From NCBI GenBank assembly GCA_035518815.1, contig DATIXG010000082.1, positions 65,398 to 129,397 of the forward strand: a stretch of 64,000 nt of DNA, written 5' to 3'. This stretch comes from Gemmatimonadales bacterium. GTDB lineage: Bacteria; Gemmatimonadota; Gemmatimonadetes; Gemmatimonadales; GWC2-71-9. The position numbers were made by a program, and so were the translations under genes. This document shows positions 1 through 56,450 of this stretch, piece after piece. The notes under the pieces were generated by a model. The model did no database searches and had not been told where the DNA came from. It saw only the letters and a list, made by a program, of their open reading frames with translations. The stretch's first letter is position 1, and each line of letters starts with the position of its first letter.

Positions 1-2
1 TC

Positions 3-1001
3 GGGCGGGAGCCCCTCGGCACCGGCGCCGACGGACGCCCGGTCTACCTGCGCGACCTCTGGCCTTCGCCCGCGGAAGTCGATGCGCTCGTGCAGAGCGC
101 GATTCAGTCCTCGATGTTCCGCAAGGAGTACGGCGAGGTCTTCAAAGGCGACGCCCGCTGGGCGGGCCTCCCCGTCCCCGCGGGCGATCGGTTCCTGTGG
201 GAGCCCGAGTCGACCTACATCCGTCGTGCTCCCTTCTTCGACGGCATGCCTGCGACGCCCAAGCCCGTGACCGACATCCAGGGCGCCCGCGTGCTATGCC
301 TCCTGGGCGACAGCATCACCACCGACCACATCTCGCCCGCGGGTTCGATTCGCAAGACGAGCCCGGCCGGCCAGTATCTCGTGGCGCACGGGGTCGACCC
401 CGTGGACTTCAACTCCTACGGCGCGCGCCGCGGCAACCATGAAGTGATGGTGCGCGGCACGTTCGCCAACGTGCGCCTGAAGAATGCGCTCGCGCCGGGT
501 ACCGAGGGACCCGTCACGGTTCACCTGCCTGACGGGGAGCGGATGACGATCTACGACGCCTCGGTGCGCTACCAGCAGGAGGGAACGCCGCTCGTCGTCA
601 TCGCGGGGAAGGAGTACGGCGCGGGGTCGTCCCGCGATTGGGCGGCGAAAGGACCACGGTTGCTCGGCGTTCGCGCCGTGATCGCCCAGAGCTACGAGCG
701 CATCCATCGCTCGAACCTCGTGGGGATGGGAATCCTGCCCTTGCAATTCCTGGCCGGCGAGGACGCCGCCTCGCTCAGGCTCACCGGGACCGAGCGCTAC
801 GACCTCACGCGTCTCGCGGAGCTCCTCACCGAGGGATTTCCGCACGGCAAAGAGGTCGCGATCCGGGCGACCGGCTCCGACGGCACCGTCGTGACGTTCC
901 GTGCCACCATCCGCATCGACACGCCGCAGGAGCTGCTCTATTACCGCCACGGCGGCATCCTCGAGTACGTGCTGCGCCAGCTCGCCGCCGGGGCGGTCTA
1001 G
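3..1001 (+). CDS. acnA: Aconitate hydratase A, C-terminal (swivel) domain; 5' end lies outside the window
   Basis: Frame is open from the window edge to TAG 999-1001. Motifs [32 protein letters not shown] and [20 protein letters not shown] are classic aconitase domain-4 motifs. Confidence 0.9.
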
Positions 1002-1016
1002 GCCGCGGCAAACCGC

Positions 1017-2420
1017 TCAGGCCGCAAGCTCGACCTTCTGTCCGTCGGTGGGTACCTCCACCCGCCACCCGTAGCGCTTCTCGATCGCCCGCGCCAGCGC
1101 GCTCGTCGCTTCAGGCTCGCCGTGGACCAGGTACGTGACGCGCGGCGGCCGCGCGAACCCGCCCAGCCATCGGAGTGTCTCGTCCCGGTCCGCGTGGGCG
1201 GACAGCGCCGTGATTTCGGCCACTCGCGCCCGCACGGTCGTATCGATGCCGAAGATCCGGATACGTTCCGCCCCCTCTTCGAGGGCCCGGCCGCGCGTGC
1301 CCGGCGCCTGATAGCCAACGAGTAGCACCGTCGTCTTCGGATCGCCGAGGCGCAGCGCCAGGTGGTGCAGGATCCGGCCCCCCGTTGCCATCCCGCTCGA
1401 CGAAATAATGATGATCGGCCCCCGAACGTCGTTGATACGCTTGGATTCTTCAGGCGTCCGGGCGATGTGCAAGCCGCCCGGATGGAGCGGGTTCTCGCCC
1501 CGCTCGAACGCCGCCGCTACCTGCGGATCGCACTCGGCAGCGTAACGGCGGTAGATGTCGGTCACCTCAATCGCCATCGGGCTGTCGCAGTACACCGGCA
1601 GCACCGGAATCGCCCCGGCGAGCTCGAGACGGCGGAGCATCCAGAGCAGCTCCTGGGTTCGGTCCACGGCGAACGCCGGCACGAGCAAGGCACCGCCCCG
1701 GCGCGCTGTGTCTTGTACCAGCGCGGCAAGCTCGGCTTCGGCACCCGTCGCATGTGTCCGGTCGCCGTACGTCGATTCGAGCAGCAAGATGTCGGCGTCG
1801 GGGATGGGAGCGGGATCGCGCAGGATCGCCCGGTCGTAGCGGCCCAGGTCTCCGGTGTAGACCAGGCGGGTGGGTCTCGAGCCACCCAGCGCGAGCTCGA
1901 TCGTGGCCGAGCCCAGAATGTGACCGGCTGGACGCAGGGTCGCCGTCACACCACGCACTACGGGAAAGGGCGTCTCGTACTCGCGACGCGCAATCAGCCG
2001 CAGTACCGCCTCGGCGTCCGCGGCGTCGTACAGCGGTAGTGCCGGGTGATGCTTCGTGTATCCCCGGCGGTTGGCGCGCTCGGCCTCCTCTTCCTGCAGG
2101 TGTGCCGCGTCGGGAAGCACCACCTCCAGCAGATCGCCGGTTGCGGCCGTGCAGTAGATGGGACCCCGGAACCCCTTGCGCACCACGAGCGGCAGGTACC
2201 CCGAGTGATCGACGTGCGCGTGGCTCACGACGATCGCATCGATCGTCCGCGGGTCCGGTACCCGGTCGCCCCAGTTGCGCAGGCGCAGGTCCTTGCGGCC
2301 CTGGAACAACCCGCAGTCGAGGAGGATGCGCCGGCCCTCCGCGCGCACGAGGTGCATCGACCCCGTGACCGTGCCCGCGGCGCCGAGGAACTCGACCGTC
2401 GGTTGTGCGACGCTCATCAT
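1017..2420 (-). CDS. MBL-fold beta-CASP metallo-hydrolase (RNA-metabolising family)
   Basis: 467-aa ORF with HAHVDHSGYLP (HxHxDH) metallo-beta-lactamase motif followed by a beta-CASP-like half. ATG 2418-2420 overlaps the TGA 2417-2419 of the upstream gene. Confidence 0.8.
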   Translation of the reverse strand: MMSVAQPTVEFLGAAGTVTGSMHLVRAEGRRILLDCGLFQGRKDLRLRNWGDRVPDPRTIDAIVVSHAHVDHSGYLPLVVRKGFRGPIYCTAATGDLLEVVLPDAAHLQEEEAERANRRGYTKHHPALPLYDAADAEAVLRLIARREYETPFPVVRGVTATLRPAGHILGSATIELALGGSRPTRLVYTGDLGRYDRAILRDPAPIPDADILLLESTYGDRTHATGAEAELAALVQDTARRGGALLVPAFAVDRTQELLWMLRRLELAGAIPVLPVYCDSPMAIEVTDIYRRYAAECDPQVAAAFERGENPLHPGGLHIARTPEESKRINDVRGPIIIISSSGMATGGRILHHLALRLGDPKTTVLLVGYQAPGTRGRALEEGAERIRIFGIDTTVRARVAEITALSAHADRDETLRWLGGFARPPRVTYLVHGEPEATSALARAIEKRYGWRVEVPTDGQKVELAA

Positions 2421-3184
2421 TGTCCGTCGACCCTACCCAGCAACCGGAGCAAGCCGTCGAGCGTGGTGAGCGGATGGGGCGGGCACCCCGGGACCCACAG
2501 GTCCACCGGCAAGATTGTGCCCACGCCGCCCGCGACCTCCGGGCTGCCCGAGAACGGGCCACCGCTCGCGGCACACGCTCCGACCGCGATGACGAGCTTG
2601 GGCGGGGGAACCGCCTCGTACGTCTGTTCGAGCGCGAACCGCATGTTCGTGTTGACCGCCCCCGTCACGACGATCCCGTCAGCGTGCCTCGGGGATGCCA
2701 CGAATTGCACGCCGAAGCGGCCGAGGTCGAACACCACATTGCCCAGCGCCACGAGTTCCGCTTCGCAGCCGCTGCAGCTGCCCGCCACGACCGAGCGGAG
2801 CCGAAGCGAGCGCCCGAACAGTTTGCGGGCGCGCTCATCGAGGGCCCGCGCCAGCTCAATCTCTCCAGTCGGACTGACCAGCGCGTCCCGCGTGGACGTG
2901 GCCATGCGATAGTCCCGGCTATAGCTGATCGCGCCTCGCGCACAGGAAGCCGCCTCTTCCGGGCTGAAGAGACACGCACCCAAATCGAGCGCGGCCGACC
3001 CGTGTGGCTCCGCTTTCAACAAGGCCGATGGCGCCCGGTCGGCGCATTGCCGGCAACTCTCCTCGCAGCGCGCCGCATCCCGCAGCGGACGGCCGCGAAA
3101 CCGCTCGGGAAATTCGCCGCCGTCCCGCGGGAACCGGGACGTCCGGATCCCCTGCTGGAGTCTCGTCCGGATCCAATCGAGCAC
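2417..3184 (-). CDS. NuoB/HycG-type [4Fe-4S] small subunit of a Hyf/Ehr-type membrane complex, with ~110-aa Cys-containing N-terminal extension
   Basis: The C-terminal half has GSCSGCE, VGACAASGGPF and VPGCPPHP, which supply the four Cys of the NuoB/HycG cluster. The N-terminal part has CEESCRQC plus two more Cys but no complete CxxCxxCxxxCP motif. Confidence 0.8.
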   Translation of the reverse strand: MLDWIRTRLQQGIRTSRFPRDGGEFPERFRGRPLRDAARCEESCRQCADRAPSALLKAEPHGSAALDLGACLFSPEEAASCARGAISYSRDYRMATSTRDALVSPTGEIELARALDERARKLFGRSLRLRSVVAGSCSGCEAELVALGNVVFDLGRFGVQFVASPRHADGIVVTGAVNTNMRFALEQTYEAVPPPKLVIAVGACAASGGPFSGSPEVAGGVGTILPVDLWVPGCPPHPLTTLDGLLRLLGRVDGQ

Positions 3185-3200
3185 CGCTTACGCCCTCATT

Positions 3201-4712
3201 TCAGAGATCGTGCCCAGCGTAGGACAGGTTGAAGCTCTTGTTGCAGAGCGGGAAATCGGAGATCTCGTTCCCGGGCATCGCCGCCGCCAGCGCGGGCCAG
3301 TTGTGAAACGAGGGGTCGGTGACTTTGTGCCGGCGGACGCGGCCAGTAGCGTCGGTGATCGCGACATGGACGATCTCCCCCCGCCATCCCTCGACCATCG
3401 CCACGGCCAGCTCATTCGGCCGCAAGCTGCCGCAGTCCACCCGTACCGGCCCCTTGGGAAGCGCGCCCAGTTGCTCGATCGTGAACTCGAGCGATCGCTG
3501 GATCTCGAGGCGCCGCACCAGCGCCCGCGCCAGCACGTCCCCCGCCCATGCGGTGGCGACGGGGATGTGCGCGAACCGGAAGATTCCCCAGGGATGATCG
3601 TGCCGCACGTCGCGCGGCAGCTCACAGGCGCGTGCCACAGGTCCGACGAAGCCGCGCTCCGCGCACGCGCTGCCAGTCACCACGCCCACACCCTCGAGCC
3701 GGGCCTGGACGGACCCGGCCTCGAACATCAGCGTGAGCACGGGGTCCATCTCCTCCCTCAGACGCTCGAGCCGGTCGCGCATCTGCTCGGCCATGGCGGG
3801 GGTGATGTCGAATGCCGCCCCGCCGGGCCGCACGAGACCGCGGCCGTAGCGATTGCCGGAGAGGGTCATCAGGAGGTTGAGACATTCTCCCCGCATGCGG
3901 CCCAGATACGCCGCCGCCGGTTGAAACGCGACGTCGCCCGCCATTGCGCCGAGATCGCCGATGTGGTTCGCCAGGCGCTCGAGCTCGAGCGCGATCCCAC
4001 GGATCGTCTGTCCCCGCGGCGTCTTGCGACTGCGGGCGAGCGCCTCGATTGCCCCGCAGTACGCCCCCGCGTGGCCGATCACCGTGTCCCCCGCGATCGA
4101 CTCGGCGACGAGCACGGCGCGATCGCGCTCGAGGCGCTCGAGCAGCGGCTCCACGCCGCGGTGCTGATAGCCGAGCATGATCTCGAGGAGCAACACCTGC
4201 TCACCGTGCGCCTGAAACCGGAAGTGTCCGGGCTCGATGATCCCGGCGTGTACGGGGCCGACCGCGACCTCGTGCACCTCCTCCCCCTCCACGCGGAAGA
4301 ACGGATACGCTTCACGGTCCAGCGACTGCGCCCGCCGCCCGGACGGGAGGTGATCTGGTGGATGGCGCCGCAGCGGCTTGAGCGAGGGGTGGCGCTCCGG
4401 CACCACGCCGCACTGCTCGGCGATCTCGCGCTCAAAGGTGTGGGCCTGCGGGCAGTCGACCGCAAGCGACGGGTAGCGGTCCCCGACGGCGGTGCTCGTC
4501 GCGCTGAGCTCCCCCGCCGCGTCATCGGCCAGGATCGCGATGAGGCGCGTCTCGTCCGTCCCCTCCGGCATCCCGAAGAGAGACGCGAGCCGCGACCCGC
4601 CGCTGACGGCCTGCAGGATCGATTCGCGAAACCGCTCCACCGGCTCGAGCGGTACGGAAGCGAGCTGGATCGCGCGCCGGTTGCGGAGGCCCAGCGCCCT
4701 GAAGCCGTTCAT
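3201..4712 (-). CDS. HycE/HyfG/NuoCD-like large subunit homologue lacking the NiFe-binding cysteines
   Basis: 503 aa. VGPVHAGIIEPGHFRF and C-terminal DPSFHNWPALAAAMPGNEISDFPL are HycE/HyfG-type, and there is a NuoC-like N-terminal ~120 aa. At the two CxxC ligand positions it reads ESIAGDTVIGH and KSFNLSYAGHDL. 4-nt overlap with the upstream gene. Confidence 0.85.
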   Translation of the reverse strand: MNGFRALGLRNRRAIQLASVPLEPVERFRESILQAVSGGSRLASLFGMPEGTDETRLIAILADDAAGELSATSTAVGDRYPSLAVDCPQAHTFEREIAEQCGVVPERHPSLKPLRRHPPDHLPSGRRAQSLDREAYPFFRVEGEEVHEVAVGPVHAGIIEPGHFRFQAHGEQVLLLEIMLGYQHRGVEPLLERLERDRAVLVAESIAGDTVIGHAGAYCGAIEALARSRKTPRGQTIRGIALELERLANHIGDLGAMAGDVAFQPAAAYLGRMRGECLNLLMTLSGNRYGRGLVRPGGAAFDITPAMAEQMRDRLERLREEMDPVLTLMFEAGSVQARLEGVGVVTGSACAERGFVGPVARACELPRDVRHDHPWGIFRFAHIPVATAWAGDVLARALVRRLEIQRSLEFTIEQLGALPKGPVRVDCGSLRPNELAVAMVEGWRGEIVHVAITDATGRVRRHKVTDPSFHNWPALAAAMPGNEISDFPLCNKSFNLSYAGHDL

Positions 4713-6148
4713 GGGGCGGAGCCACCGAGGGCGACGGCGGCGCGCGCCAGGACCTCTTGCAGCGGGCCCGGAATGAAAACGCCCAGCATCAAAACCGTGG
4801 CCGCGAGGGCGGCTGGACCCGCAACCAGCCAGGGGCTCTCGCGGACGGGGAGGCTGGCCGACGGGGGCTCACCGAGCGCGATCCCGAGCACGAGCGCCGC
4901 CATTCCCACAAAGATGATCGCCAGCATCAGCAGCATCACCACCGCGACCCAGGGGTGGCCGGCGTCGATCGCCGCGCGCAGGATCGTGAACTCGCTCATG
5001 AAGAGACCGAACGGAGGCGACCCCGTGACGGCGAACAGCCCGAGTACGAGAAGCGCCGCCGAGGCTGGCAGCGTGCGCACCAGTCCCCTCGCGCGCGCCG
5101 CCGTCGAGCTACCAGTCGCGAGCACGATGTTTCCGGTGACCAGGAACATCCAACCCTTGGCCAAGCCGTTGTTCACGAGGTGGAGCATGCTGCCGTATGC
5201 GCCCACGCCGCCCAACCCGAGCCCCAGCACGAGGAGCCCCATGTGCTCCACGCTCGAATACGCGAGGAGGCGCTTCACGTCGCTCTGCCCGATGATGAAC
5301 ACGGCGGCCACGGCGAGGGACACGAGTCCGAAACCCACGAGCACCGGTTGAGCAAACGACCCGAGCCCCGCGGCCATGACGACCTCCGTCACGCGGGCGA
5401 CCCCGAGAAAGGCGCACCCCGTCAGCGCGCCGGCCATGAGACCGCTGACGAGGCTGGGCGCTTCCCCGTAGGCGTCGGGCTTCCAGGTGTGCATCGGGGC
5501 AAGCCCCATCTTCGTGCCAAAGCCCACGAGCAAGAAGAGGAACGCAGCGCGCAGCCAGGCGGGGTGCAGCTCCCGGGCATGCGCGACCAGATCGGGGAGG
5601 ACGAGCGGACGCCCCGGGACGCCCTCCTGCGCGCTCGCCAGGAAGAAGGTACCGAGCAGCGCGAGCGCGATCCCGACCGACGAGATGACGAGGTACTTCC
5701 AGGTGGCCTCGAGCGAGCGACGGTCCCGGCGCAGGAACACCAGCGGCGCAACCGACAGGGTCGTTGCTTCCATCCCGACCCAGAGCAACGCCAGGTGATG
5801 CGCAAGCGCCACGACGGACGCCGCCGAGAGAAACGCCAGGAGGCAACCCGCGAAGACCCGGCCGCTGCGTGGCTTCTCGTGCCGCAGGTATCCCACCGTG
5901 TAGGTCACGGTGACGACGAAGAGCACGCTCGTGAGGGTGAGGACGATCATGCCCAGCGGATCAGCGGCGAGCCAACCGCCCAGCTCCGGCGGCGGGGGCG
6001 CAACCCAGAGGGACGCAACCAGCCCGAGATGGGCCAGCGCGGCCGCGGCGAGGAGGGCGACGGGGACGCGGCGTCCCCGGAATGCGGGCAGCACGAGCAC
6101 CGGGACCGCGACCAGCAAGGGCAGCCCACAGATGACGAGCAGACGCAT
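4709..6148 (-). CDS. Antiporter-like membrane subunit (HyfF/NuoN family)
   Basis: 479-aa polytopic ORF with FGTKMGLAPMHTWKPDAYGEAPS motif of the NuoL/M/N proton-antiporter-like family. ATG 6146-6148 shares one nt with the upstream TGA. Confidence 0.8.
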   Translation of the reverse strand: MRLLVICGLPLLVAVPVLVLPAFRGRRVPVALLAAAALAHLGLVASLWVAPPPPELGGWLAADPLGMIVLTLTSVLFVVTVTYTVGYLRHEKPRSGRVFAGCLLAFLSAASVVALAHHLALLWVGMEATTLSVAPLVFLRRDRRSLEATWKYLVISSVGIALALLGTFFLASAQEGVPGRPLVLPDLVAHARELHPAWLRAAFLFLLVGFGTKMGLAPMHTWKPDAYGEAPSLVSGLMAGALTGCAFLGVARVTEVVMAAGLGSFAQPVLVGFGLVSLAVAAVFIIGQSDVKRLLAYSSVEHMGLLVLGLGLGGVGAYGSMLHLVNNGLAKGWMFLVTGNIVLATGSSTAARARGLVRTLPASAALLVLGLFAVTGSPPFGLFMSEFTILRAAIDAGHPWVAVVMLLMLAIIFVGMAALVLGIALGEPPSASLPVRESPWLVAGPAALAATVLMLGVFIPGPLQEVLARAAVALGGSAP

Positions 6149-6792
6149 CAGTCGGTCAGCTCTCTGAGCCGCGTCGAATCGAGCGAGTCGAATTCGCGGT
6201 TGATGTGGAACACGACGATGCCCATGACGAACACACCGACGAAGACGTCGAGGAGCACGCCGAGCTCCATCAGGAACGGGACGCTTTCGGTCTGCGTCAG
6301 ACCGAAGAGATAGATCCCGTTCTCGAGTATGAGATAGCCGACCACTTGCGTGATGGCTTTGCGTCGGGTGGTGAGCACGATGAAGCCGATCATCACCGTT
6401 GCGAGGGACGCCGGCACGAGCAGCGGCTGCTGCAGGGCCGGCAGGGGCAGGCGGGCGGCGATGGCGAAGGCGAGCGCCAGCGCGAGCGCGCCGAGCAGCT
6501 GCGACGCGATGAAGCCCACCATCGGCTCGATCTCCCGACGCACGGCCGCCTCACGAATCGCCCGCGCCAGGAACCAGGGCAGCACAATCGCCTTCACGAG
6601 AACGGTGCCCATGCCGAGAGCGACGGCGTGTACCGAAACCTGTGGTGCGACGAGAACCGGGAGGAGGCCGAGCAGCAGGCCCTGGGCCGCGACGCCGCGG
6701 ATGCAGCTCGAGAGCCGCGTGGTGCCCAGGATGGCGAGGTCGGACAGGACCACGAGCAGGAGGACGAGCTGGGCGGCGTTTCGCACGGTCAA
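6148..6792 (-). CDS. HyfE-like small membrane subunit
   Basis: 214-aa hydrophobic ORF with GYLILENGIYLFG. It sits between the NuoH-like and NuoN-like genes as hyfE does in hyf operons. 4-nt overlap upstream. Confidence 0.65.
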   Translation of the reverse strand: MTVRNAAQLVLLLVVLSDLAILGTTRLSSCIRGVAAQGLLLGLLPVLVAPQVSVHAVALGMGTVLVKAIVLPWFLARAIREAAVRREIEPMVGFIASQLLGALALALAFAIAARLPLPALQQPLLVPASLATVMIGFIVLTTRRKAITQVVGYLILENGIYLFGLTQTESVPFLMELGVLLDVFVGVFVMGIVVFHINREFDSLDSTRLRELTD

Positions 6793-7700
6793 CCGAGCTG
6801 CAGGACGATGCCGAACAGCGCCAGGGCGCCCGCCCCCACGAGCAGCTGCGGCACGCGGCTGAGCCGCAGCCGCGCCATGGCCGACTCCACGACGCCCACG
6901 AAGACGGCCACGACTCCAAGCCCGAGGAACAGGACCGCAAGCGCCACGGGCCCGGACAGCCCCGCGCGCGGCACGAATACGCTCACAACCAATACGCCGA
7001 ACAGCGCGAGCTTGAGCGCGCTGCCATACAGGATCAGCGCGAGGTCGGGCCCGCTGTGGTCGAGGACGATCACCTCGTGGATCATCGTCAGTTCGAGATG
7101 GGTCGCCGGGTCGTCGACCGGAACTCTGCAGTTCTCCGCCAACAGCAAGACGAAGAGACTAATACCCACGAGGCTCAGCGACGCGCCCGCGCGGGGCCAC
7201 GCCTCGGCGAGCGGTGTCCCCAACATGCCCGCGAGCGAGGTATCGCCGGTCGCCAGCACAAGCGCAATGAAGCAAAGGAACAACGTCGGCTCCGCGAAGC
7301 TCGCGATCGTCACCTCGCGGCTCGCCCCCATTCCCTCGAAGCTCGAGCCCGTGTCGAGCCCCGCGAGCACGAGCGCGAAGCGCCCCAGCGCGAGCAGCCC
7401 CGCGAACGCGACCAGATCGCCTGCGAAGCTGGCGGGCGCTTCGCGTCCGTCGAGCGGCAGGAACAGCGCCGCCACAACCAGCGACGCAAGGACCACAACC
7501 GGGCCCGCGCGGAAGATCCATGACGTGGTCCGGCTGTAGACAGTCCCCTTCCGCACGAGCTTCCAGAGGTCGTAGTAAAGCTGCAGCACCGGCGGGCCGC
7601 GCCGCCCCGTCAGGAGCGACTTGGTCTTCACCACAACTCCCGACAGCGCCGGAGCCGCGAGCCCCAAGATGCCGAGCGCAGCGAGCCCTTCCCGCGTCAC
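6789..7700 (-). CDS. HycD/HyfC/NuoH-like membrane subunit
   Basis: The track ORF runs to 8060, but that part overlaps the upstream gene. GTG 7698-7700 overlaps the upstream TGA (GTGA). The product starts VTREGLAALGILGLAAP...TGRRGPPVLQLYYDLWKL, which is HycD-like. Confidence 0.75.
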   Translation of the reverse strand: MTREGLAALGILGLAAPALSGVVVKTKSLLTGRRGPPVLQLYYDLWKLVRKGTVYSRTTSWIFRAGPVVVLASLVVAALFLPLDGREAPASFAGDLVAFAGLLALGRFALVLAGLDTGSSFEGMGASREVTIASFAEPTLFLCFIALVLATGDTSLAGMLGTPLAEAWPRAGASLSLVGISLFVLLLAENCRVPVDDPATHLELTMIHEVIVLDHSGPDLALILYGSALKLALFGVLVVSVFVPRAGLSGPVALAVLFLGLGVVAVFVGVVESAMARLRLSRVPQLLVGAGALALFGIVLQLG

Positions 7701-9655
7701 AGGCCCCTTCCGGCGATGAGGAGGTAGAAGAGCAACCCGATGACGGCCGCGCCGACATACACGAGGTACAGGGACAGCGTGCCACGTTGCACCGAACGGA
7801 GCCTGGTGGCGGCGCTCTCGATGGCGTGCCAAGCAGGTAGAAATACGCGCTCCAGCACGGGGTCGAACGCGTGGGTGGCGAAGGCCTGCACGGTGCGGTC
7901 CGCGCGGAAGCCGGCGAACGACCGGAAGGTGCCGATGAGCGGGGCCGCGAAGGACGACGCGGTGTACGCCATCCGAGGCGTCGCCATCGCATAGGCGCAC
8001 CCCCAGGTCGGGGCCAGCGCCGGACGCGCGCGGCGACCGAACGCGCGACGGACTGCCCACGCCACGAGGAGGCCGACTGCGAGCGCGAGCGTGAACACCG
8101 TCGCGCCGACACTCGCCACCGGAGACCCTGCTCCGCCAGGGAGACCACCCGCGACGAGCGAACCCACCCGGAGCGCCGGCGGGACCACGGCGATCGGCAG
8201 CAGCCCGATCACGATGCAGGCGATCGCGAGGCCGACGGGCGGGTGGATCATGCCGCGGGGGGGCTCCCGGGCGCCATCAGCGACCGGGTCACGCGGCGTC
8301 CCCAGATAGATGACGCCTACCACCTTCGCGAAGCAGGCGAGGGCTAACGCGCCCATGAACGCGAGTGCCACGGCGGCGAGTACCGCTCGCGGCATCGCAT
8401 CGTGCGCGCTCCCGCCGCGGAGCAGCGCCTGGTATACCACCCACTCACTCACGAAGCCGTTCAGCGGCGGCAGCCCGACGATCGCCGCGGCGCCAACGAG
8501 GAATGCCGCCGCCGTCGTGGGCATGCGCCGAGCGAGCCCGCCAAGCCGGTCGATGTCCCGCGTGCCGGTGGCGTGAATCACCGAACCCGCGCCGAGGAAG
8601 AGGAGGCTCTTGAACAACGCGTGATTGAGCGTGTGAAGCGCAGCTCCGGCGAAGCCGAGCACCGCGATCAGCGGGTGGCCATACGCGAGGCCCAAGGCGC
8701 CCGCTCCGATCCCGAGCAGGACGATTCCGATGTTCTCGACGCTGTGGAAGGCGAGGAGCCGCTTGATGTCGTGCTGGGCGAGGGCCCAGACCACGCCGAG
8801 CACGCCGGAGCACGCCCCGAGGGCGAGCACGGTCCATCCCCACCAGGGTGGCGGCGCGCCGAACATGACCAGCGCACGCATCAGCCCATAGATCCCCATC
8901 TTGATCACGACGCCGGACATGAGCGCGGACACGTGCGCGGGCGCCGCAGCGTGCGCTTCGGGCAGCCAGACATGCAGTGGCACCACCCCCGCCTTCAGGC
9001 CGAAGGCGACGAGGGCGAGCGCCAGGATTATTGCCCCGCGGCCCTCCGAGAACGGCGCGTGCGCGGTAAGGGCGGCAAAGCTGAAATCACTCCCGACGCC
9101 CGCCCAGGCGGCGAAGAGAGCGAATAGCAACAAGGTCCCGGTGTGGGTCGCCACGAGGTAGATGAGACCGGCCCGACGCACCTCAGGTCGCTCGTGCTCG
9201 AACACGACCAGCAGATACGCCAGCACCGCCATCACTTCCCAGGCGATGAGGAAGGGCACGGCGGCGCGCGCGGTGACGGCAAGCGCCAGCGCGGTCACGA
9301 GCAGCGCCAACAGCAGATGCGCCGCCCCGACGGCGCGGTGACCGCGCTCATGATCCAGATAGGCAAGCCCGTAGAATGCGCACGCAGCGCCGACGATCAG
9401 GATCGCAAGCACGAACACGGCAGAGAGCGAATCGAGCCCGAACACCCACGCGCCGAAAGGCGCCCGGGTCGCCAACCGCACGTCGGGCACCGCAGCGCCG
9501 CCAAGCACCGCGAGTGCCGGCACCGCTCCGGTCACTGAGCCCGCCGCGAACAAAAGGCGGAACAACCTCTCCCCCAGCGCGGGATGCCGCCTCAATGCCG
9601 CCGCAGCGGCACCCGCCATGACGAGCAGCAGCAGGCTCACCGCGAACAGGGTCAC
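7697..9655 (-). CDS. Antiporter-like membrane subunit (HyfB/HyfD/NuoL-M family), second copy
   Basis: Start chosen at GTG 9653-9655, which overlaps the upstream TGA 9652-9654; a later ATG around 9618-9620 is an alternative. Carries FGLKAGVVPLHVWLPEAHAAAPAHVSALMSG. The Arg/Gly-rich 240 aa upstream in the track ORF is non-protein-like. Confidence 0.75.
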   Translation of the reverse strand: MTLFAVSLLLLVMAGAAAAALRRHPALGERLFRLLFAAGSVTGAVPALAVLGGAAVPDVRLATRAPFGAWVFGLDSLSAVFVLAILIVGAACAFYGLAYLDHERGHRAVGAAHLLLALLVTALALAVTARAAVPFLIAWEVMAVLAYLLVVFEHERPEVRRAGLIYLVATHTGTLLLFALFAAWAGVGSDFSFAALTAHAPFSEGRGAIILALALVAFGLKAGVVPLHVWLPEAHAAAPAHVSALMSGVVIKMGIYGLMRALVMFGAPPPWWGWTVLALGACSGVLGVVWALAQHDIKRLLAFHSVENIGIVLLGIGAGALGLAYGHPLIAVLGFAGAALHTLNHALFKSLLFLGAGSVIHATGTRDIDRLGGLARRMPTTAAAFLVGAAAIVGLPPLNGFVSEWVVYQALLRGGSAHDAMPRAVLAAVALAFMGALALACFAKVVGVIYLGTPRDPVADGAREPPRGMIHPPVGLAIACIVIGLLPIAVVPPALRVGSLVAGGLPGGAGSPVASVGATVFTLALAVGLLVAWAVRRAFGRRARPALAPTWGCAYAMATPRMAYTASSFAAPLIGTFRSFAGFRADRTVQAFATHAFDPVLERVFLPAWHAIESAATRLRSVQRGTLSLYLVYVGAAVIGLLFYLLIAGRGL

Positions 9656-11556
9656 CGCCGCACTCCGGGAAGGAAGAGCAAGGCCAACACCACGAGCACC
9701 GTGGCGCCGATGTACAGGAGTGACCCCGTGACGCGCGCCTGATGGTACGCGCGTATCCGCCGGCCCGCCCGTGCGACGGCGGCGAAGAGCGGCAGATAGA
9801 GACTCGTCAGCGCGCGGTCCACGGTCTCTCGCGACCGCTCCGTGTGTAGCACGGGTTGGAGGATGCGCGTCACGGGCTGGGCGAAGGAGGTGGCCGTGTA
9901 TTGCATGGCTACCGTCGGCGCGGCGTAGGCGCACCCCCAGGTCGCGCTCCTCCGTTGCAACGATCGCCGTCCCACCGCGAGCCGCAATGTGACAATGAGC
10001 GCCGTGGCCAAGGCGAGCAGTGGGCCCACGATGGCGAGCGGCGTCAGGGCGCTCTGCGCCACCTGCACGTCGGCCGCCGGCGCGACGATCGTCACCGCTC
10101 GACCGAGCAGAGCGGCGACGCGACCCGGTATCGCCCCCATAATCACGCAGCCCGCGGCAAACAGCACCGGGGGCAGGACCATCGCCCCGCCCGGAGGCCG
10201 CGCAGCTTCCGCCTCGGCGGTGCGCGCCGAGCCCGCGAGACCAATCCCCACGAGCCGGGCGAAGCACAGCACGGCAAGGCCGCCGGCGAGCGCGACAGCG
10301 ACGATGCTCCCGAGCAATGCGACCCGTGCGATCCCCTGCAGCGCCACGGCCCCGAACAGCAGCCCGCGCACGAGCAGCCACTCACTCGCGAAGATGTTCA
10401 GACCAGGAAGCGAGGCCAAAGCGGCCGCCCCGATGCAGAGCACCGCGCCGACCACCGGCCAGCCGCGCATGAATCCCCCCAAAGCATCGAGGCTCCGACT
10501 CCGCGCGCCTTGTGCGACCGCCCCGAACCCGAGGAACAGGAGCGCCTTCGCCAAAGCGTGATTCCAAACGTGGAGCAGCGCCGCCGTCCAGGCGAGCCCC
10601 GCCAGTACGGGCTGACCCTCCACAGTTGCCAGGAGAGCCACGCCCAGCGCGAGCGTCACGATTCCCACATTCTCTATCGTCGAATAGGCAAGCACGCGCT
10701 TCACGTCGCGCTGCGCGATTGCAAAGGCAACACCGCCTGAGGCGCCTACCGCCCCGAGACCGATCAGCAGGTATCCCCACCACAGGGCGGGGGGGCCGAA
10801 GAGCGGGATGAATCGCGCCAGGCCGTAGACGCCCATGGTGATCATGATCGCCGACATGAGCGCCGAAACGTGCGACGGCGCCGCGGGATGTGCGTCCGGC
10901 AGCCACACGTGCAGCGGCACGATACCCGCCTTGGTGCCGAAGCCGATCAGGGCGAGCCCGAAGAGCAGTCCCGACGGGACCACCGGCCCGAGCGTGGAAC
11001 GGGCGGTGAGGAACAGCGCCAGCAGCACGAGCGCCCCAGTCGCGACATGCCCGGCGACGAGGTATTGCAAGCCTGCTGCGCGAACCGCTGGCGCCTCGTG
11101 ATCGCTCACCACCAGTGCCCACGAGCTCAACGTCATCAACTCCCACGCGACGACGAGAAGCACGACATCGTTGGCCGTGACCACGAGTCCCATGGCGAGT
11201 AGGAGGACGTCGTACGCGGCAAGCGACGGCCCGATCGGTCGCCCGTGCGCGTGCCAGCGCAGGTACGCAACGCCGTAGACCGCGCAAAGTCCTCCAACGA
11301 GCGCCAGAGGGAGGAGGAAGACCGCCGCCAGTGGATCGAGCCGCAGGGCGAGCGCGCCTGCGGGCACACTCCACGGCGCGCGCCAGGACTGCGACACGCC
11401 GCCCGTGAGCGCGTGAGTGGCGGCGACTCCCAACGCGATCGCACCGGCGACAGCTCCCCCGCCGCCGAACAGTGCGCCCGCCCGGTGTCGCCGCAGCAGC
11501 AGCCCACCGCAGGCACCCATGCTCCAGCACAGGAACGCGATCCCGAGCCCGCCCAC
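9652..11556 (-). CDS. Antiporter-like membrane subunit (HyfB/NuoL family), first copy
   Basis: 634 aa with FGTKAGIVPLHVWLPDAHPAAPSHVSALMSA. GTG 11554-11556 overlaps the TAG 11556-11558 of the upstream regulator gene. Confidence 0.8.
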   Translation of the reverse strand: MGGLGIAFLCWSMGACGGLLLRRHRAGALFGGGGAVAGAIALGVAATHALTGGVSQSWRAPWSVPAGALALRLDPLAAVFLLPLALVGGLCAVYGVAYLRWHAHGRPIGPSLAAYDVLLLAMGLVVTANDVVLLVVAWELMTLSSWALVVSDHEAPAVRAAGLQYLVAGHVATGALVLLALFLTARSTLGPVVPSGLLFGLALIGFGTKAGIVPLHVWLPDAHPAAPSHVSALMSAIMITMGVYGLARFIPLFGPPALWWGYLLIGLGAVGASGGVAFAIAQRDVKRVLAYSTIENVGIVTLALGVALLATVEGQPVLAGLAWTAALLHVWNHALAKALLFLGFGAVAQGARSRSLDALGGFMRGWPVVGAVLCIGAAALASLPGLNIFASEWLLVRGLLFGAVALQGIARVALLGSIVAVALAGGLAVLCFARLVGIGLAGSARTAEAEAARPPGGAMVLPPVLFAAGCVIMGAIPGRVAALLGRAVTIVAPAADVQVAQSALTPLAIVGPLLALATALIVTLRLAVGRRSLQRRSATWGCAYAAPTVAMQYTATSFAQPVTRILQPVLHTERSRETVDRALTSLYLPLFAAVARAGRRIRAYHQARVTGSLLYIGATVLVVLALLFLPGVRR

Positions 11557-12254
11557 TAGGGCTCGTCGCTCGCAGGCCGCGGGCCGCTCGCTCGCTCGAG
11601 CGTGCGCACCCGTGTCAGAATGTCCGCCGCGGGGGACCGTCGAACGAGCAGCTTCCGCAGACTCTCATCGTGGAGCGCGAAACCGAGCTGCCCGAGAATC
11701 CGGAGGTGCGCCGGGACGTTTGGGCTCACCACCGTGAACAGGGCGTGCACCGGCTTGGCGTCCACCGCATCGAAGTCCACCGGGTCGCGCAGCAGACACA
11801 GGCTCACGAACGGGGCGGTGACGTGCAGCAGGATCGGATTGCGCACGTGTGGGATCGCGATTCCGTCACCGATCCCGGTGGAGCCCATGGCCTCCCGCGC
11901 CTCGAGTGTCGTCACCAGGAACTCCCGGTCGATCTCGGCCGGCAACGGGAGGCGCTGAACGATCTCGCGCAGCACACTCGCCTTGTCCCTGCCCCCCACC
12001 TCGTGATGAATCCCGCCTGCGGACAAGAGCTCGGACAGCGGGGGGACCCGTTCCGGCTGCCGCTGCGCCTGCTCCAGCAGCGTTCGCGATACCGGGATCC
12101 CGTTCTCGGTGGCCCACTCCCAAAGCTCGATGGCGTTCAGATGCAGTCGTTCATTCACGCGATGGACGGGGAGACCGCGGCGCTGAATCCAGCGCCGCAC
12201 CGTCGCCTCGTCCACCCCCAGGTAGGAGGCCGCCTCGCGCACCGTCAGCTGCAT
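11556..12254 (-). CDS. Fusion regulator: excisionase/MerR-type HTH + PTS EIIA(Ntr)-like domain
   Basis: ATG 12252-12254. The N-terminus LTVREAASYLGVDEATVRRWIQRRGLPVHRV is an HTH. The C-terminal ~150 aa are PtsN/EIIA-2-like, including GIGDGIAIPHVRN (phosphorylatable His context). Confidence 0.75.
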   Translation of the reverse strand: MQLTVREAASYLGVDEATVRRWIQRRGLPVHRVNERLHLNAIELWEWATENGIPVSRTLLEQAQRQPERVPPLSELLSAGGIHHEVGGRDKASVLREIVQRLPLPAEIDREFLVTTLEAREAMGSTGIGDGIAIPHVRNPILLHVTAPFVSLCLLRDPVDFDAVDAKPVHALFTVVSPNVPAHLRILGQLGFALHDESLRKLLVRRSPAADILTRVRTLERASGPRPASDEP

Positions 12255-12533
12255 GTTCGAACGGCTGTCATCGTGTGGGCACGGAGGTGTGGATCGGCCG
12301 TGTCGAGCCGGGGCGGAGCGACCGCTCTCGTGGACAGGCCCGCAACGTCCTGTGCAACCCGGAAAAGAGCATGACGGCGGAGCAAGATAGCTGGCAGCGA
12401 TGAAAATTCCATGAAGAGCCGCCTCGGCGAGCATCGGCTGCAGGAAGTGAGCCCATGGAGGCGCACAAGGCACGAAAGACGTCCCTTTGCCTTCAGAATG
12501 TCACTAAGAACGTGTCAAGATTGCGAGAACTGC

Positions 12534-12562
12534 TTGACCCCTCGGCCGGCGCGGGATACGTT
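12534..12562 (+). promoter_or_regulatory. Candidate sigma70-type promoter of glnK (TTGACC-N17-TACGTT)
   Basis: TTGACC 12534-12539, a 17-nt spacer, then TACGTT 12557-12562. It ends 8 nt before the glnK ATG, and no Shine-Dalgarno lies between them. Confidence 0.35.
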
Positions 12563-12570
12563 CTCGCCCC

Positions 12571-12981
12571 ATGAAACTCATCACTACTATCGTCCGCCCC
12601 GAACGCCTTCCCGAAGTCAAGGAAGCGCTGTTCCGGGCCGGCGTCACGGGCATCACCCTCACCCGTGTGAGTGGCCACGGCGGTGAGCAGGAAGTCGTGG
12701 GACAGTACCGCGGCACGACGGTGGTCATGGAGTTCCACGAGAAGGTGAAGATCGAGATGGTCTGCTCCGAGCCGTTCGTCGAGGCGACCATCAAGGCGAT
12801 TCTCTCCTCCGCGCGCACCGGCGAGGTGGGAGACGGCAAGATCTTCATCCAGCCGATCGAGCGCGTGATCCGGATCCGCACCGGCGAAGTGGACAACGCC
12901 GCCCTGACGGCCGTCAACGCGGACGAGGTGCAGCGCCATGCGCTCGAGCACGCGCAGCAGGCCAAGGGAGGGGCGTCATGA
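12571..12981 (+). CDS. glnK: P-II nitrogen regulatory protein
   Basis: MKLITTIVRPERLPEVKEAL..., a T-loop with GQYRG (conserved Tyr) and GDGKIFIQPIE. It overlaps amtB by 4 nt (the typical glnK-amtB pair). 136 aa, i.e. about 24 aa longer than canonical P-II. Confidence 0.9.
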   Translation: MKLITTIVRPERLPEVKEALFRAGVTGITLTRVSGHGGEQEVVGQYRGTTVVMEFHEKVKIEMVCSEPFVEATIKAILSSARTGEVGDGKIFIQPIERVIRIRTGEVDNAALTAVNADEVQRHALEHAQQAKGGAS

Positions 12982-14327
12982 CGCTGCCCGCCCTGGTGGA
13001 TACGCCTGTGGTCTCGAGCGGCGACACGGCGTGGGTGCTCACGGCATCCGCACTCGTCATGGTCATGACCGTTGGCCTCGGATTCTTCTACGGCGGACTC
13101 GTCCGGCCCAAGAATGCCCTCAACACGATGATGATGAGCATCGTCGCCCTCGGCATCATCAGCGTGCAGTGGGTGCTGTTCGGCTACTCGATCGCGTTCG
13201 GCCATGGGACGCCGCTGTGGGGCGGCCTGGGGTGGTTCTTGTTCAAAGGCGTGGGGGTCGATCCCGACCCGGCCTATGCGGCCACCATCCCGCTCCATGC
13301 CCACGCGATGTTCCAGCTGATGTTCGCCATTATCACGCCCGCCCTGATTTCGGGCGCGATCGCCGAGCGGATGCGGTTCCGCGCGTACGTCGCCTTCATC
13401 TTCCTCTGGGCCACGTTCGTGTATGACCCGCTGGCGCACTGGGTGTGGGGCACGGGCGGCTGGCTCCTGTCACGCGGCGCCCTGGACTTCGCCGGCGGCA
13501 CCGTCGTGCACATCAGCGCGGGCTTCTCGGCCCTGGTGGCGGCGCGGATGCTCGGGCCGCGCAAGGACTTCAAGCGCGTCCCGATCGTCCCGCACAACGT
13601 GCCCCTCGTGCTGCTTGGCGCCGGCCTCTTGTGGTTCGGGTGGTTCGGCTTCAATGCCGGCTCCGCGCTGGCCGCGAACGGCCTTGCCGCGCTGGCGTTC
13701 ACGAACACGAACACGGCGGCCGCGATGGCGATGGTCACGTGGGTGATCCTCGACTGGATGCGGACGGGTAAGGCCACCGCCGTCGGTGCGGCCACCGGTC
13801 TCGTGGTCGGGCTCGTCGCGATCACGCCGGCCGCCGGCTACATCAGCGCGCCGGCGTCTCTCGCCGTCGGCATCCTGGGCGTGCTCGTCAGCTACACGGC
13901 GATTCAGATCCGCGCCAAGACCTCGCTCGACGACTCGCTCGACGTGTTCTCCTGCCACGGGCTCGCCGGCGTGGCCGGGGCGCTGCTCACGGGCGTGTTC
14001 GCCCAGAAGGCCATCAACCCGGCCGGCAACGACGGCTGGTTTGCCGGCAACTTCGCTCAAATGGGTACGCAGGTTATTGCGATCCTCGCGGCCATCGGCA
14101 TCTCGGTCGTGGGGACGGTGATTCTGATGGTGCTCGTCAACGCGACGCTGGGCGCCAAGGCGGCCGTGCGTGATGAGCTCACCGGGCTCGACCTGAGCGA
14201 GCACGGGGAGGAGGCCTACTTCGGAGCGGATGTGGGCGGGACGGCGAGTGCTGGAACGGCGCTTGGCGCGGGCGTCATTGTGTCGAGCGCCGGCGGCGAG
14301 CACGGGAAAAAAGCGGCTGTGGCCTGA
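12978..14327 (+). CDS. amtB: Ammonium transporter
   Basis: 449 aa, Amt/MEP family. Motifs FAGGTVVHISAGFSALV and VFSCHGLAGVAGALLTGVF carry the twin-His context. Confidence 0.9.
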   Translation: MTLPALVDTPVVSSGDTAWVLTASALVMVMTVGLGFFYGGLVRPKNALNTMMMSIVALGIISVQWVLFGYSIAFGHGTPLWGGLGWFLFKGVGVDPDPAYAATIPLHAHAMFQLMFAIITPALISGAIAERMRFRAYVAFIFLWATFVYDPLAHWVWGTGGWLLSRGALDFAGGTVVHISAGFSALVAARMLGPRKDFKRVPIVPHNVPLVLLGAGLLWFGWFGFNAGSALAANGLAALAFTNTNTAAAMAMVTWVILDWMRTGKATAVGAATGLVVGLVAITPAAGYISAPASLAVGILGVLVSYTAIQIRAKTSLDDSLDVFSCHGLAGVAGALLTGVFAQKAINPAGNDGWFAGNFAQMGTQVIAILAAIGISVVGTVILMVLVNATLGAKAAVRDELTGLDLSEHGEEAYFGADVGGTASAGTALGAGVIVSSAGGEHGKKAAVA

Positions 14328-20500: not shown

Positions 20501-20683
20501 GCGCTCGACCGACTCGGGGCTCGCCCCCGTGTAGCGCGTCTGGATCACGATGAAGGGAAACTCGACGTCCGGGAACTGGTCGATATTCAGCCGCCGGTAC
20601 GAGAACAACCCCAGCACCACGAGCGTCATGATCATCATCGTGGCGAGCACCGGCCGCTTGATGGAGAGATCGCTCAGGAACAC
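17516..20683 (-). CDS. RND efflux pump permease (AcrB/HAE1-like)
   Basis: 1055 aa with the typical N-terminus [28 protein letters not shown] and the duplicated 6-TM plus large periplasmic loop architecture. Confidence 0.9.
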
Positions 20684-20686
20684 GGC

Positions 20687-23157: not shown

Positions 23158-23158
23158 G

Positions 23159-26272: not shown

Positions 26273-26353
26273 GTGCTTCGCCCGCTCCTGCCCTGGAAAC
26301 GGGGCACTCATGGGAGCGAGGCACACATCGGACGATGGGGGACGGGGGCGTGC

Positions 26354-53965: not shown

Positions 53966-54062
53966 GCTACGCCCCGCTCATAGGACCCAGGTCACAGCGG
54001 GGCGTGCCTTGAGCTCGATTGCGGAACCTGCTGATTATACAGGGCTTAGGATGCTCTACCGG

Positions 54063-54870: not shown

Positions 54871-54922
54871 CCGACCGCCCCAGCATTTCATTTGTCACTC
54901 AGGGAAGGAGCACGCGCGGCAC

Positions 54923-56402: not shown

Positions 56403-56450
56403 TTTCCCGTCCGCGACAAGTCGGCTGCCAGCGACATTCCTGAATACACG

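Follow-up and report, generated by a model that had tools for sequence, protein, structure and literature searches.

On the minus strand of a 64-kb stretch of DNA from a Gemmatimonadales bacterium (hereafter the window), positions 2417–11556 carry seven packed genes that, judging from their sequences, encode a minimal complex-I-like membrane enzyme that arose from group-4 [NiFe]-hydrogenases but no longer has their NiFe site. The run comprises two HyfB-like genes, one HycD/NuoH-like, one HyfE-like and one HyfF-like gene, a NuoC::NuoD/HycE-like fusion (the large subunit) and a NuoB/HycG-like gene (the small subunit). Features were read from the nucleotide letters, their translations and a list of open reading frames (ORFs). 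An initial annotation had described this run as a seven-gene module of the Hyf type or of the energy-converting-hydrogenase-related (Ehr) type, and the ORFs, translations and Pfam matches bear out the sizes and order that it gave, with the HyfE-like gene recognized through sub-threshold matches only. We consider the encoded complex very probably an Ehr-type complex and not a NiFe hydrogenase.

The large subunit is homologous to the large subunits of group-4 [NiFe]-hydrogenases and to NuoD; a phmmer search against PDB sequences ranked HycE first (7z0s_E, 8.7e-48), followed by MbhL (6cfw_L, 4.3e-34), Nqo4 of Thermus thermophilus (1.9e-27) and MbsL (6u8y_L, 6.7e-23). No HycE or HyfG model of NCBIfam matched it, and the NuoD model reached 181 bits against a cut-off of 360. 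When the protein is aligned with HycE, the L1 motif drvCGICgfaH lies opposite aesiAGDTvigH (CGIC to AGDT) and the L2 motif sldpCysC lies opposite sfnlSyaG (CYSC to SYAG), such that all four cysteine ligands of the NiFe site are replaced, by Ala207, Thr210, Ser497 and Gly500. The ligand motifs of bona fide group-4 [NiFe]-hydrogenases, RxCGxCxxxH for L1 and DPCxxCxxH/R for L2, are thus missing from the protein, and a six-frame scan of the window found no R.CG.C or DPCxxC motif. The signature that stands in their place reads AESIAGDTVIGH ... DFPLCNKSFNLSYAGHDL. The initial annotation had called this subunit cysteine-less, which is accurate for the four NiFe ligands but not for the whole chain, as it holds 8 cysteines, among them a conserved Cys490 within DFPLCNKS.

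The replacement residues are nearly invariant. Ala207 is present in 80 of 80 orthologues from Gemmatimonadota and Eisenbacteria, Thr210 in 71 (the other 9 have serine), and Ser497 and Gly500 in 79 each; over the segments VGPVHAGIIEPGHFRF, AESIAGDTVIGH and DFPLCNKSFNLSYAGHDL, nearly every position is identical in 70–80 of these 80 sequences, and most signature residues in 78–80. The loop IIEPGHFRF is likewise nearly invariant in the 80 orthologues, and the proton-relay residue Glu160 is retained. Positions conserved at 95% or more make up 39% of the large subunit, the highest share among eight proteins (range 20–39%). The near-invariance of the replacements, the C-terminal signature and the IIEPGHFRF loop argues for purifying selection and not decay, and the two motif exchanges together with their conservation support the Ehr-type reading that had been proposed at the outset.

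Tyr87 and His38 (T. thermophilus Nqo4 numbering) are the ligands of the quinone head group in established structures of complex I. Aligning the large subunit with Nqo4 (2fug_4) places D-Y-L-H of Nqo4 opposite A-G-D-T, with Gly208 at the position of Tyr87, and the β1–β2 loop is of the hydrogenase type, HAGIIEPGHFRF, as opposed to the QHPSTHG of the His38 loop in complex I. With the NiFe ligands lost as well, the protein has no hydrogenase site and no quinone site of the complex I kind.

When 1.84 billion representatives at 50% identity were searched exhaustively with HMMER, 843 of them matched at E < 1e-30. Most of the best 150 share [AS]GD[ST] and DFPL[C/I/V]NKSF.LSY[C/A/S]G.DL, and CG.C ... 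C..C is intact in only six of those 150 (P0205, P0208, P0235, P0243, P0244 and P0248), which are 36–40% identical to the window protein. We placed 104 full-length sequences in a neighbour-joining tree, which lacks bootstrap support and is indicative only. The six intact-motif sequences form one clade in this tree, nested in the half that holds Rhizobium HyqG and the proteins of Bacteroidota and Ignavibacteria, and the window protein belongs to the other half, together with proteins of Verrucomicrobia, Brocadiia and Variovorax; no sequence of that half keeps the four NiFe-ligand cysteines. The large subunit therefore does not cluster inside the hydrogenases with intact ligands, in keeping with the initial annotation.

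The small subunit is a fusion of two domains. Residues ~120–252 form a NuoB/HycG domain whose PDB matches are MbhJ (6cfw_J, 8.6e-31) and HycG (7z0s_G, 4e-30) and which, over residues 136–252, narrowly passes the cut-off of an NCBIfam NuoB subfamily model (116.7 against 116 bits). It has the four cysteines that a NuoB-type small subunit provides for one [4Fe-4S] cluster of the N2 type (Cys137, 140, 204 and 234), and these are conserved in 75 of 75 orthologues. Residues ~1–104 form a ferredoxin domain of the HycF/HyfH/NuoI type, recognized by the NCBIfam models 'formate hydrogenlyase complex iron-sulfur subunit' (5.9e-09) and HyfH (9.2e-05) and, over residues 3–100, by similarity to HycF (7z0s_F, 1e-05). 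Thus the earlier claim that the locus lacks a ferredoxin or partner subunit of the HyfA/HyfH type stands as far as stand-alone genes are concerned, but a HycF/HyfH-type domain is present in fused form.

The cysteines of this ferredoxin domain are incompletely retained. In motif 1, C40-x3-C44-x2-C47 is kept and the fourth cysteine position is occupied by Ala51; in motif 2, the first (C71) and last (C81) cysteines are kept, with Ser74 and Glu77 between them. With the wiring that is usual for a 2x[4Fe-4S] ferredoxin, one full ligand set (C40/44/47/81) would be left in the window protein and the other destroyed. Cysteines of the ferredoxin domain are present in only ~37 of the 75 orthologues; even the one full set survives in only about half of them, and the region is deleted in many. 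Verrucomicrobial orthologues retain all eight, and the ferredoxin domain of a Verrucomicrobial protein matches MbhN (6cfw_N) at 3.7e-12; the Brocadiia orthologue retains only the other motif set, and the small subunits of Variovorax and of Bacteroidota/Ignavibacteria have full Fer4 domains. The complete 2x[4Fe-4S] domains in Verrucomicrobia, Variovorax and Bacteroidota point to an ancestor whose small subunit served for electron input in the manner of MbhN plus MbhJ or HycF plus HycG. The ancestral state accordingly looks like a three-cluster input chain in which constraint on the two relay clusters was later relaxed in several lineages, and never on the N2-type cluster.

Within the membrane, the HycD/NuoH-like subunit links the peripheral arm to the membrane arm, and in 63 orthologues 20 of its charged residues are kept at 97% or more. 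The HyfE-like subunit falls below the cut-offs of both the NCBIfam model 'hydrogenase 4 membrane subunit' (2.3e-22; 80 against 136 bits) and Pfam Oxidored_q2 (3.2e-05), and its C-terminal half is NuoK-like; its position is conserved in all loci, and 16 of its charged residues reach a conservation of 97% or more. The best PDB matches of the three antiporter-like subunits include Mrp subunits A and D, and the protein of 652 amino acids matches HycC (7z0s_C, 1.3e-74) and MbhH (6cfw_H, 2.6e-62). A glutamate in transmembrane helix (TM) 5, lysines in TM7 and TM11 and a glutamate in TM12 are the ion-transfer residues of complex I and Mrp-type subunits, and we assigned helices by comparing motifs with the aligned HycC and MbhH sequences and by established knowledge. 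All four residues are invariant (12/12) in the 634-residue protein, which has threonine at the TM8 position. Glu140, Lys221, Lys252, Lys349 and Glu404 of the 652-residue protein, a set that includes the TM8 lysine, are invariant in 49 of 49 sequences, and in the 479-residue protein Glu127, Lys213 and Lys331 are found in 68/68 and Glu386 in 66/68. NCBIfam equivalog scores for hydrogenase-4 or formate hydrogenlyase subunits all remain far below their cut-offs: the HyfB model gives 548 and 450 bits against 667, 'hydrogenase 4 subunit B' being the best match of the 634-residue protein at 449.7 bits, and 'hydrogenase 4 subunit F' gives 343.6 bits against 610 for the 479-residue protein. The 634-residue copy is variable and optional: most related loci make do with a single HyfB-like gene, and about one third carry two. 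Across the complex as a whole, sequence conservation shows that evolution can dispense with the electron-input ferredoxin clusters, but not with the N2-type cluster, the remodelled pocket or the ion-transfer residues.

The NuoH/HycD-like and antiporter-like subunits share one operon, as seen from the NADHdh match, the three Proton_antipo_M matches and the overlapping junctions. In order of transcription, and including a gene that directly follows, the genes of the locus are:

11556–12254, minus strand: regulator gene with helix-turn-helix (HTH) and EIIA domains, first of the operon (232 amino acids; Pfam HTH_17, PTS_EIIA_2)
9652–11556, minus strand: antiporter-like subunit 1, HyfB/NuoL-like (634 amino acids; Pfam Proton_antipo_M, 8.6e-41)
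7697–9655, minus strand: antiporter-like subunit 2, counterpart of HyfB/HycC/MbhH (652 amino acids; Pfam Proton_antipo_M, 8e-54)
6789–7700, minus strand: HycD/HyfC/NuoH-like membrane subunit (303 amino acids; Pfam NADHdh, 2.7e-31)
6148–6792, minus strand: HyfE-like small membrane subunit (214 amino acids; sub-threshold NCBIfam and Pfam matches)
4709–6148, minus strand: antiporter-like subunit 3, HyfF/NuoN-like (479 amino acids; Pfam Proton_antipo_M, 2.1e-48)
3201–4712, minus strand: large subunit, NuoC::NuoD/HycE/HyqG-like fusion (503 amino acids; Pfam Complex1_49kDa, 7.4e-36)
2417–3184, minus strand: small subunit, HycF~HycG-type fusion (255 amino acids; Pfam Oxidored_q6, 2.4e-28)
1017–2420, minus strand: β-CASP nuclease gene of the metallo-β-lactamase fold (467 amino acids; Pfam Beta-Casp, RMMBL, Lactamase_B_2)

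Overlaps of 1–4 nucleotides had been reported for almost every junction, and we verified them at the sequence level in six of seven cases, counting the junction of the regulator with the first gene and the six among the seven genes. They measure 1 nucleotide at 11556 (regulator stop and next start) and at 6148, and 4 nucleotides at 9652–9655, 7697–7700, 6789–6792 and 4709–4712; the large- and small-subunit genes are separated by a spacer of 16 nucleotides. A further overlap of 4 nucleotides, at 2417–2420, joins the small-subunit gene to the downstream nuclease gene. The start of the HyfE-like gene is ambiguous, at TTG 6792 (214 amino acids) or GTG 6786 (212 amino acids, the choice of the public gene call). 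We searched 80 genome loci, recovered with the large subunit, with the window proteins using tblastn, and every related locus long enough to show the gene order keeps the same one. The order regulator-B-(B)-C-E-F-G-(F~I fusion) is kept in at least 574 species genomes, mostly of Gemmatimonadota, and in Verrucomicrobiia and Brocadiia as well. Given that the same order recurs in ~80 loci and in other phyla, the run of ORFs is not a product of chance. A scan of positions 1–13000 for promoter and terminator consensus sequences gave counts no better than those of shuffled sequence. The plus-strand AT skew is strongly positive over 4001–12000 (0.23–0.33, against about 0 elsewhere), and since this region coincides with the minus-strand membrane-protein genes, the skew is probably a codon-composition effect of hydrophobic proteins. 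On plasmid 3 of Variovorax sp. PBL-E5, a second hyfB-C-E-F... operon (L088, 14586–19413) lies ~3.4 kb downstream of the Ehr-type one, which places two paralogous complexes side by side.

The seven structural genes are as initially annotated, and a conserved and translationally coupled regulator gene (11556–12254) forms the start of the operon. The regulator combines an excisionase/MerR-like DNA-binding domain (HTH_17, 6.4e-09) with a PtsN-like EIIA domain (PTS_EIIA_2, 2.1e-22), and PtsN-type NCBIfam matches stay below their cut-offs. It has 232 amino acids in the public gene call; its homologues start at MQLTV, so that a longer ORF of 305 amino acids is an artefact of the ORF rule. The EIIA motif GIAIPHVRNP, including the predicted phospho-acceptor His136, is at least 96% conserved in 54 sequences from three phyla. 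The gene lies directly upstream in all ~50 Gemmatimonadota and Eisenbacteria loci with upstream DNA, and it comes first, with a 4-nucleotide overlap with the next gene, in the orthologous operons of two Verrucomicrobiia genomes and one Brocadiia genome, such that three to four phyla at least have an HTH-EIIA regulator at the head of the operon. The operons of Bacteroidota, Ignavibacteria and Variovorax lack it. When the 250 nucleotides preceding the regulator gene in 53 loci were compared by k-mers for a common operator, no motif occurred in more than 10 of the loci.

Accessory and partner genes of hydrogenases are missing. Beyond the nine ORFs of the locus, 40 others in the window were scanned with Pfam and yielded no hyp, hycI, fdh, nuo or stand-alone ferredoxin genes and no nif genes, and six-frame motif scans of the window detected no CxxCxxCxxxC, HypC or HypB motif; the reported absence of hyp, hycI and formate dehydrogenase genes from the 64 kb thus held under both kinds of scan. 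Nor do hyp, hycI or fdh genes adjoin, within 10 kb, any of the ~90 related loci that we examined, and no linkage of hyp or fdhF to the operon was found in the window or beside these loci. Neither the window nor the flanks of related loci hold HyfA/HycB, FdhF, HycH/HyfJ, HycI or hyp, and the NuoE/F/G NADH module is missing from the operon and the window. Clustering of the ORFs within 5 kb on either side of ~75 loci yielded no conserved redox partner. The lack of a separate redox partner by the operon in any lineage would be expected if a soluble carrier docks directly.

Ehr complexes have been described as such, with their function stated as unknown, in Margulisbacteria and others (PMC6349859), comammox Nitrospira (PMC10284858) and ammonia-oxidising archaea (PMC10432482), and they are treated in the field as non-hydrogenases (PMC6728331, PMC10284858). 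Known members include Geobacter sulfurreducens GSU0739–0745 (EhrA-1 ... EhrC, EhrL, EhrS), the complexes of Nitrospira, ammonia-oxidising archaea and Margulisbacteria, and Mycobacterium tuberculosis Rv0082–0087; in Geobacter (GSU0739–45), EhrA-1, EhrC, EhrL and EhrS are more abundant on formate (PMC7894505). The window operon shares with these a cluster of seven genes, a group-4-related large subunit without CxxC pairs, a NuoB-type small subunit, and NuoL-like, NuoH-like and HyfE-like membrane subunits. It differs from the Ehr complexes described so far in being headed by an HTH-EIIA regulator gene and in its half-decayed fused ferredoxin domain. Our literature search found no published description of an Ehr/Hyq complex from Gemmatimonadota, and a search for cryo-electron microscopy of hydrogenase-like complexes returned nothing relevant.

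A second known system of the same superfamily is Hyq. The seven genes hyqRBCEFGI of Azorhizobium caulinodans have been linked through mutant phenotypes to recycling of nitrogenase H2 and to H2 evolution at very low O2 (PMC2650096, PMC3357923), the operon belongs to the nif regulon of diazotrophs (PMC2650096), and HyqG (504 amino acids, NuoC::NuoD) lacks both CxxC motifs, its authors calling a NiFe centre 'uncertain, if not unlikely' (PMC3357923). The initial statement that the substrate of such complexes is not known is correct but incomplete, as Hyq, a member of the superfamily, has in vivo evidence that links it to H2 (PMC2650096, PMC3357923). Compared with Rhizobium johnstonii 3841 pRL11, the window operon has the same order, regulator-B-C-E-F-G-I, with overlapping genes; the large subunits are NuoC::NuoD fusions of nearly equal length (504 and 503 amino acids) without CxxC pairs, and HyqG of R. 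johnstonii reads SGDS ... DFPLCNKSFNCSYSGHDL, matching the window signature (SGDS/AGDT, DFPLCNKSFN.SY.GHDL, Cys490/491). HyqI likewise has the same four N2-type cysteines. However, the large subunits are only 37% identical and the NuoB domains 56%, the proteins fall in different major clades of the neighbour-joining tree, the equivalent of HyqG Cys-497 is Leu496 in the window protein, and HyqI (177 amino acids) has no ferredoxin domain. HyqR is an unrelated HTH protein of 98 amino acids without EIIA, and BLAST did not match it to the window regulator; the window has two HyfB-like genes against one in Hyq, and there is no nif context in the window. Orthology to alpha-proteobacterial HyqG, HyqI or HyqR was thus not found, and the window operon is best regarded as a member of the Ehr/Hyq superfamily that shares its core gene order with the alpha-proteobacterial Hyq clade without being orthologous to it.

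Among complexes with solved structures, Escherichia coli Hyc (7Z0S) provides the best matches for the large subunit, the HycC-like antiporter subunit and the ferredoxin part, with HycG second behind MbhJ, and gene names and order follow hyfB-C-E-F-G-(H)-I; unlike Hyc and Hyf, the window complex has no NiFe ligands, and its HycF and HycG parts are fused. Pyrococcus furiosus MBH (6CFW) and MBS/Mbx (6U8Y) share the path from ferredoxin through a NuoI-like (MbhN) and a NuoB-like (MbhJ) component to the large-subunit site, coupled to antiporter-like subunits, and MBS offers the example of a complex that arose from a hydrogenase and reduces a different substrate; MBH, however, keeps the NiFe site, MBH and MBS have 13–14 subunits including an Mrp module, and MbsL is a more distant match to the large subunit. 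With complex I the operon shares homologues of NuoB, C, D, H and L/M/N, NuoI and NuoK as domains, the N2-type cysteines and the conserved antiporter lysines and glutamates, but it has no NuoE/F/G and no separate NuoA or NuoJ genes. Neither is it an Mrp antiporter, as MrpA/D-like domains are present but are accompanied by a peripheral arm of the NuoB/C/D/I type, and the operon has no MrpE/F/G.

The explanation that we regard as the most likely, with moderate confidence in it as a whole, is that the complex is an Fe–S-dependent ion-translocating oxidoreductase that receives electrons from a carrier, performs a redox reaction in the remodelled pocket and has its expression tuned through EIIA. A soluble low-potential (ferredoxin-like) carrier would pass electrons into the Fe–S centre or centres of the fused small subunit, from which they would reach the remodelled pocket where the large subunit, the small subunit and HycD meet, and which would contain the conserved Asp209, Thr210, Cys490, His501 and Asp502 and the retained proton-relay loop. 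A redox reaction there with some acceptor may drive, or be driven by, translocation of H+ or Na+ through the three antiporter-like subunits, and transcription would be tuned by the phosphorylation state of EIIA, as a signal of carbon, nitrogen or energy status of the kind conveyed by the nitrogen-type phosphotransferase system (PTS-Ntr). This interpretation must be made cautiously, as several observations weigh against it and its electron-wire part is weak. About half of the Gemmatimonadota orthologues have ferredoxin-domain cysteines deleted or mutated, the window protein has only the motif-1 cluster and the Brocadiia orthologue only the motif-2 cluster, and the domain is wholly absent from alpha-proteobacterial HyqI; such scattered loss implies that an intact three-cluster relay is dispensable in several lineages. 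In addition, nothing in the 64-kb window points to the donor, and the quinone ligands of complex I are absent (Gly at Tyr87 and no loop of the His38 type). The lineage-specific loss of relay clusters is the main weakness of the oxidoreductase model, and it keeps two rivals alive, one based on menaquinone and one on antiport.

The former is a special case of the same model, unlikely though not far-fetched, in which the complex is a proton-pumping ferredoxin:menaquinone oxidoreductase, a six- or seven-subunit analogue of NDH-1/Fpo. The N2-type cluster would hand electrons to membrane menaquinone inside a cavity shared by the large, small and HycD-like subunits. The complex is built like the Q-module and P-module of complex I put together, its N2-type cysteines are invariant, and an MqnA-like gene (26072–27304) lies in the same window. 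The NuoI-type domain, which is the ferredoxin entry point in MBH, is also present here, and for Hyq a quinone site was inferred by Sprecher et al. (PMC3357923), whose model of the quinone side of their enzyme is of this kind. Gly208 at the position of Nqo4 Tyr87 and a loop, IIEPGHFRF, that does not bear His38 speak against quinone binding, as does the greater similarity of the large subunit to HycE and MbhL (8.7e-48 and 4.3e-34) than to any NuoD (1.9e-27); separate NuoA and NuoJ homologues are also missing, and the only NuoK-like region is inside the HyfE-like gene. One may postulate, with less probability still, that the complex is an Mrp-like antiporter, redox-independent or redox-gated, in which the hydrogenase arm serves as a structural or sensory cap, the Fe–S cluster as a redox sensor, and EIIA sets expression. 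Such a scenario would account for relay clusters that decay independently by lineage while the antiporter residues stay invariant, for the lack of a conserved redox partner nearby and for an EIIA(Ntr)-like regulator as invariant first gene in three phyla; PtsN is linked to K+ transport in E. coli and controls K+ homeostasis in Proteobacteria, and the PDB matches include Mrp subunits A and D. Yet the large-subunit pocket and proton-relay loop are the most conserved part of the operon (39% of positions at 95% or more), the four N2-type cysteines are invariant, and orthologues in Verrucomicrobia, Bacteroidota and Variovorax keep the full three-cluster chain. The conservation of the pocket, the loop and the N2-type cysteines indicates more constraint than a mere cap would need.

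Two further readings carry much lower probability. It is improbable that the enzyme metabolises H2 at a non-canonical site, as in the 'endo-hydrogenase' Hyq of Azorhizobium, even though Hyq genetics (PMC2650096, PMC3357923), the signature that Rhizobium HyqG has in common with the window protein at 37% identity, and the retained Glu160 loop all fit this idea. The four NiFe ligands are absent, hyp and hycI are found neither in the window nor in related loci, the Hyq authors themselves doubt a NiFe centre (PMC3357923) and Ehr complexes are seen as non-hydrogenases (PMC6728331, PMC10284858); moreover, HyqG falls in the other major clade of the tree, and the evidence for Hyq is indirect, derived from mutant phenotypes. 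The boldest reading, to which we assign only a slight chance, is that the near-invariant pocket (Ala207-Gly-Asp209-Thr210, Cys490, Ser497, His501, Asp502 and the loop), beside the invariant N2-type cluster, carries out catalysis without nickel, in the extreme case the H2 oxidation or evolution attributed to Hyq on genetic grounds; if that were true, hundreds of genomes of Gemmatimonadota, Verrucomicrobiota and Planctomycetota would encode a class of hydrogen-cycling enzyme with a new active site, switched by an EIIA regulator of the PTS-Ntr type. A less extreme reading would be a redox-gated cation pump under PTS-Ntr control. That the operon is a decaying, functionless hydrogenase relic is a possibility we consider negligible: catalytic ligands have indeed been lost, and ferredoxin clusters in part, but the reading frames are intact, the genes overlap by 1–4 nucleotides, synteny extends over hundreds of species in several phyla, 20–39% of the residues of each protein are at least 95% conserved and the replaced active-site residues are themselves nearly invariant.

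Ehr/Hyq complexes are widespread and clearly functional, stand between membrane hydrogenases and complex I, and have long been a loose end of bioenergetics; in Gemmatimonadota, a phylum abundant in soil, they belong to the standard equipment and are highly conserved. We found no description in the literature of the cross-phylum association with an HTH-EIIA gene, of the patchwork decay of ferredoxin clusters set against an invariant N2-type site, or of the strict conservation of the substitute pocket, and all three are useful leads; the regulator in particular offers a testable handle on when the complex is made, through PTS-Ntr signalling of nitrogen, carbon or K+ status. In genome annotation, members of the Ehr/Hyq family are given the automatic names 'Ni,Fe-hydrogenase III large subunit' or 'NADH-quinone oxidoreductase subunit C', and either name misleads.

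The β-CASP nuclease (Beta-Casp, 1.3e-36; RMMBL, 3.7e-18; best NCBIfam match 'Cas14 MBL-CASP' at 376 bits against a cut-off of 800) was considered as an eighth subunit and rejected, as a homologue lies directly downstream only in five loci of one sub-clade (L015, L016, L017, L020 and L030), with another elsewhere on L003, and the operons of Verrucomicrobia, Brocadiia, Bacteroidota and Proteobacteria lack the gene; rather than a subunit, the nuclease is probably a lineage-specific passenger of the operon. On the plus strand, a glnK (P-II) and amtB (ammonium transporter) pair (12571–14327) is divergent from the regulator gene, and as the pair is not conserved at any other locus, we rejected a nitrogen link as chance adjacency. 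Patchy neighbours were likewise discounted as parts of the system, namely TetR (12 loci), a SulP transporter (10), a second HTH-EIIA paralogue (11) and a copper-oxidase-like protein (4). The SulP-family (bicarbonate/sulfate-type) gene lies upstream in its 10 Gemmatimonadota loci, for example at 2434–4167 of L073, and in the Brocadiia operon (L083) a β-carbonic anhydrase gene (3354–4133) lies divergently upstream; these neighbours may be coincidental or may hint at a link to the transport of inorganic carbon or anions. In Verrucomicrobia, the operon is followed by a Zn_ribbon_9 gene (L082, 12422–12802; L084, 12341–12721) and then by a convergent gene for a Rex-type (redox-sensing, NADH-responsive) repressor (L082, 12866–13495; L084, 12880–13569).

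The remainder of the window, whose GC content is about 0.64–0.70 and whose proteins have their nearest relatives in metagenome-assembled genomes of Gemmatimonadales, holds several other features. The MqnA-like/VitK2_biosynth gene on the plus strand (26072–27304) belongs to the futalosine pathway of menaquinone synthesis, which suggests that menaquinone is the quinone of this organism; ~130 residues precede the domain and may reflect a later true start. A complete RND-type efflux operon occupies 17516–23773 on the minus strand, with TetR, an outer-membrane factor, a membrane-fusion protein and an AcrB-type pump of 1055 amino acids. Ten CXXCH haem motifs occur in two adjacent plus-strand ORFs (58930–61946), the one of 786 amino acids being a multihaem cytochrome c fused to a long C-terminal TPR array, and YceI-like proteins are encoded nearby (56485–58035 and 62486–63322). 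These lie within 54000–64000, where GC content is 0.63–0.66 against 0.67–0.70 elsewhere and where several large ORFs have no Pfam match, such as those at 54892–55953 and 56518–59325 (minus strand).

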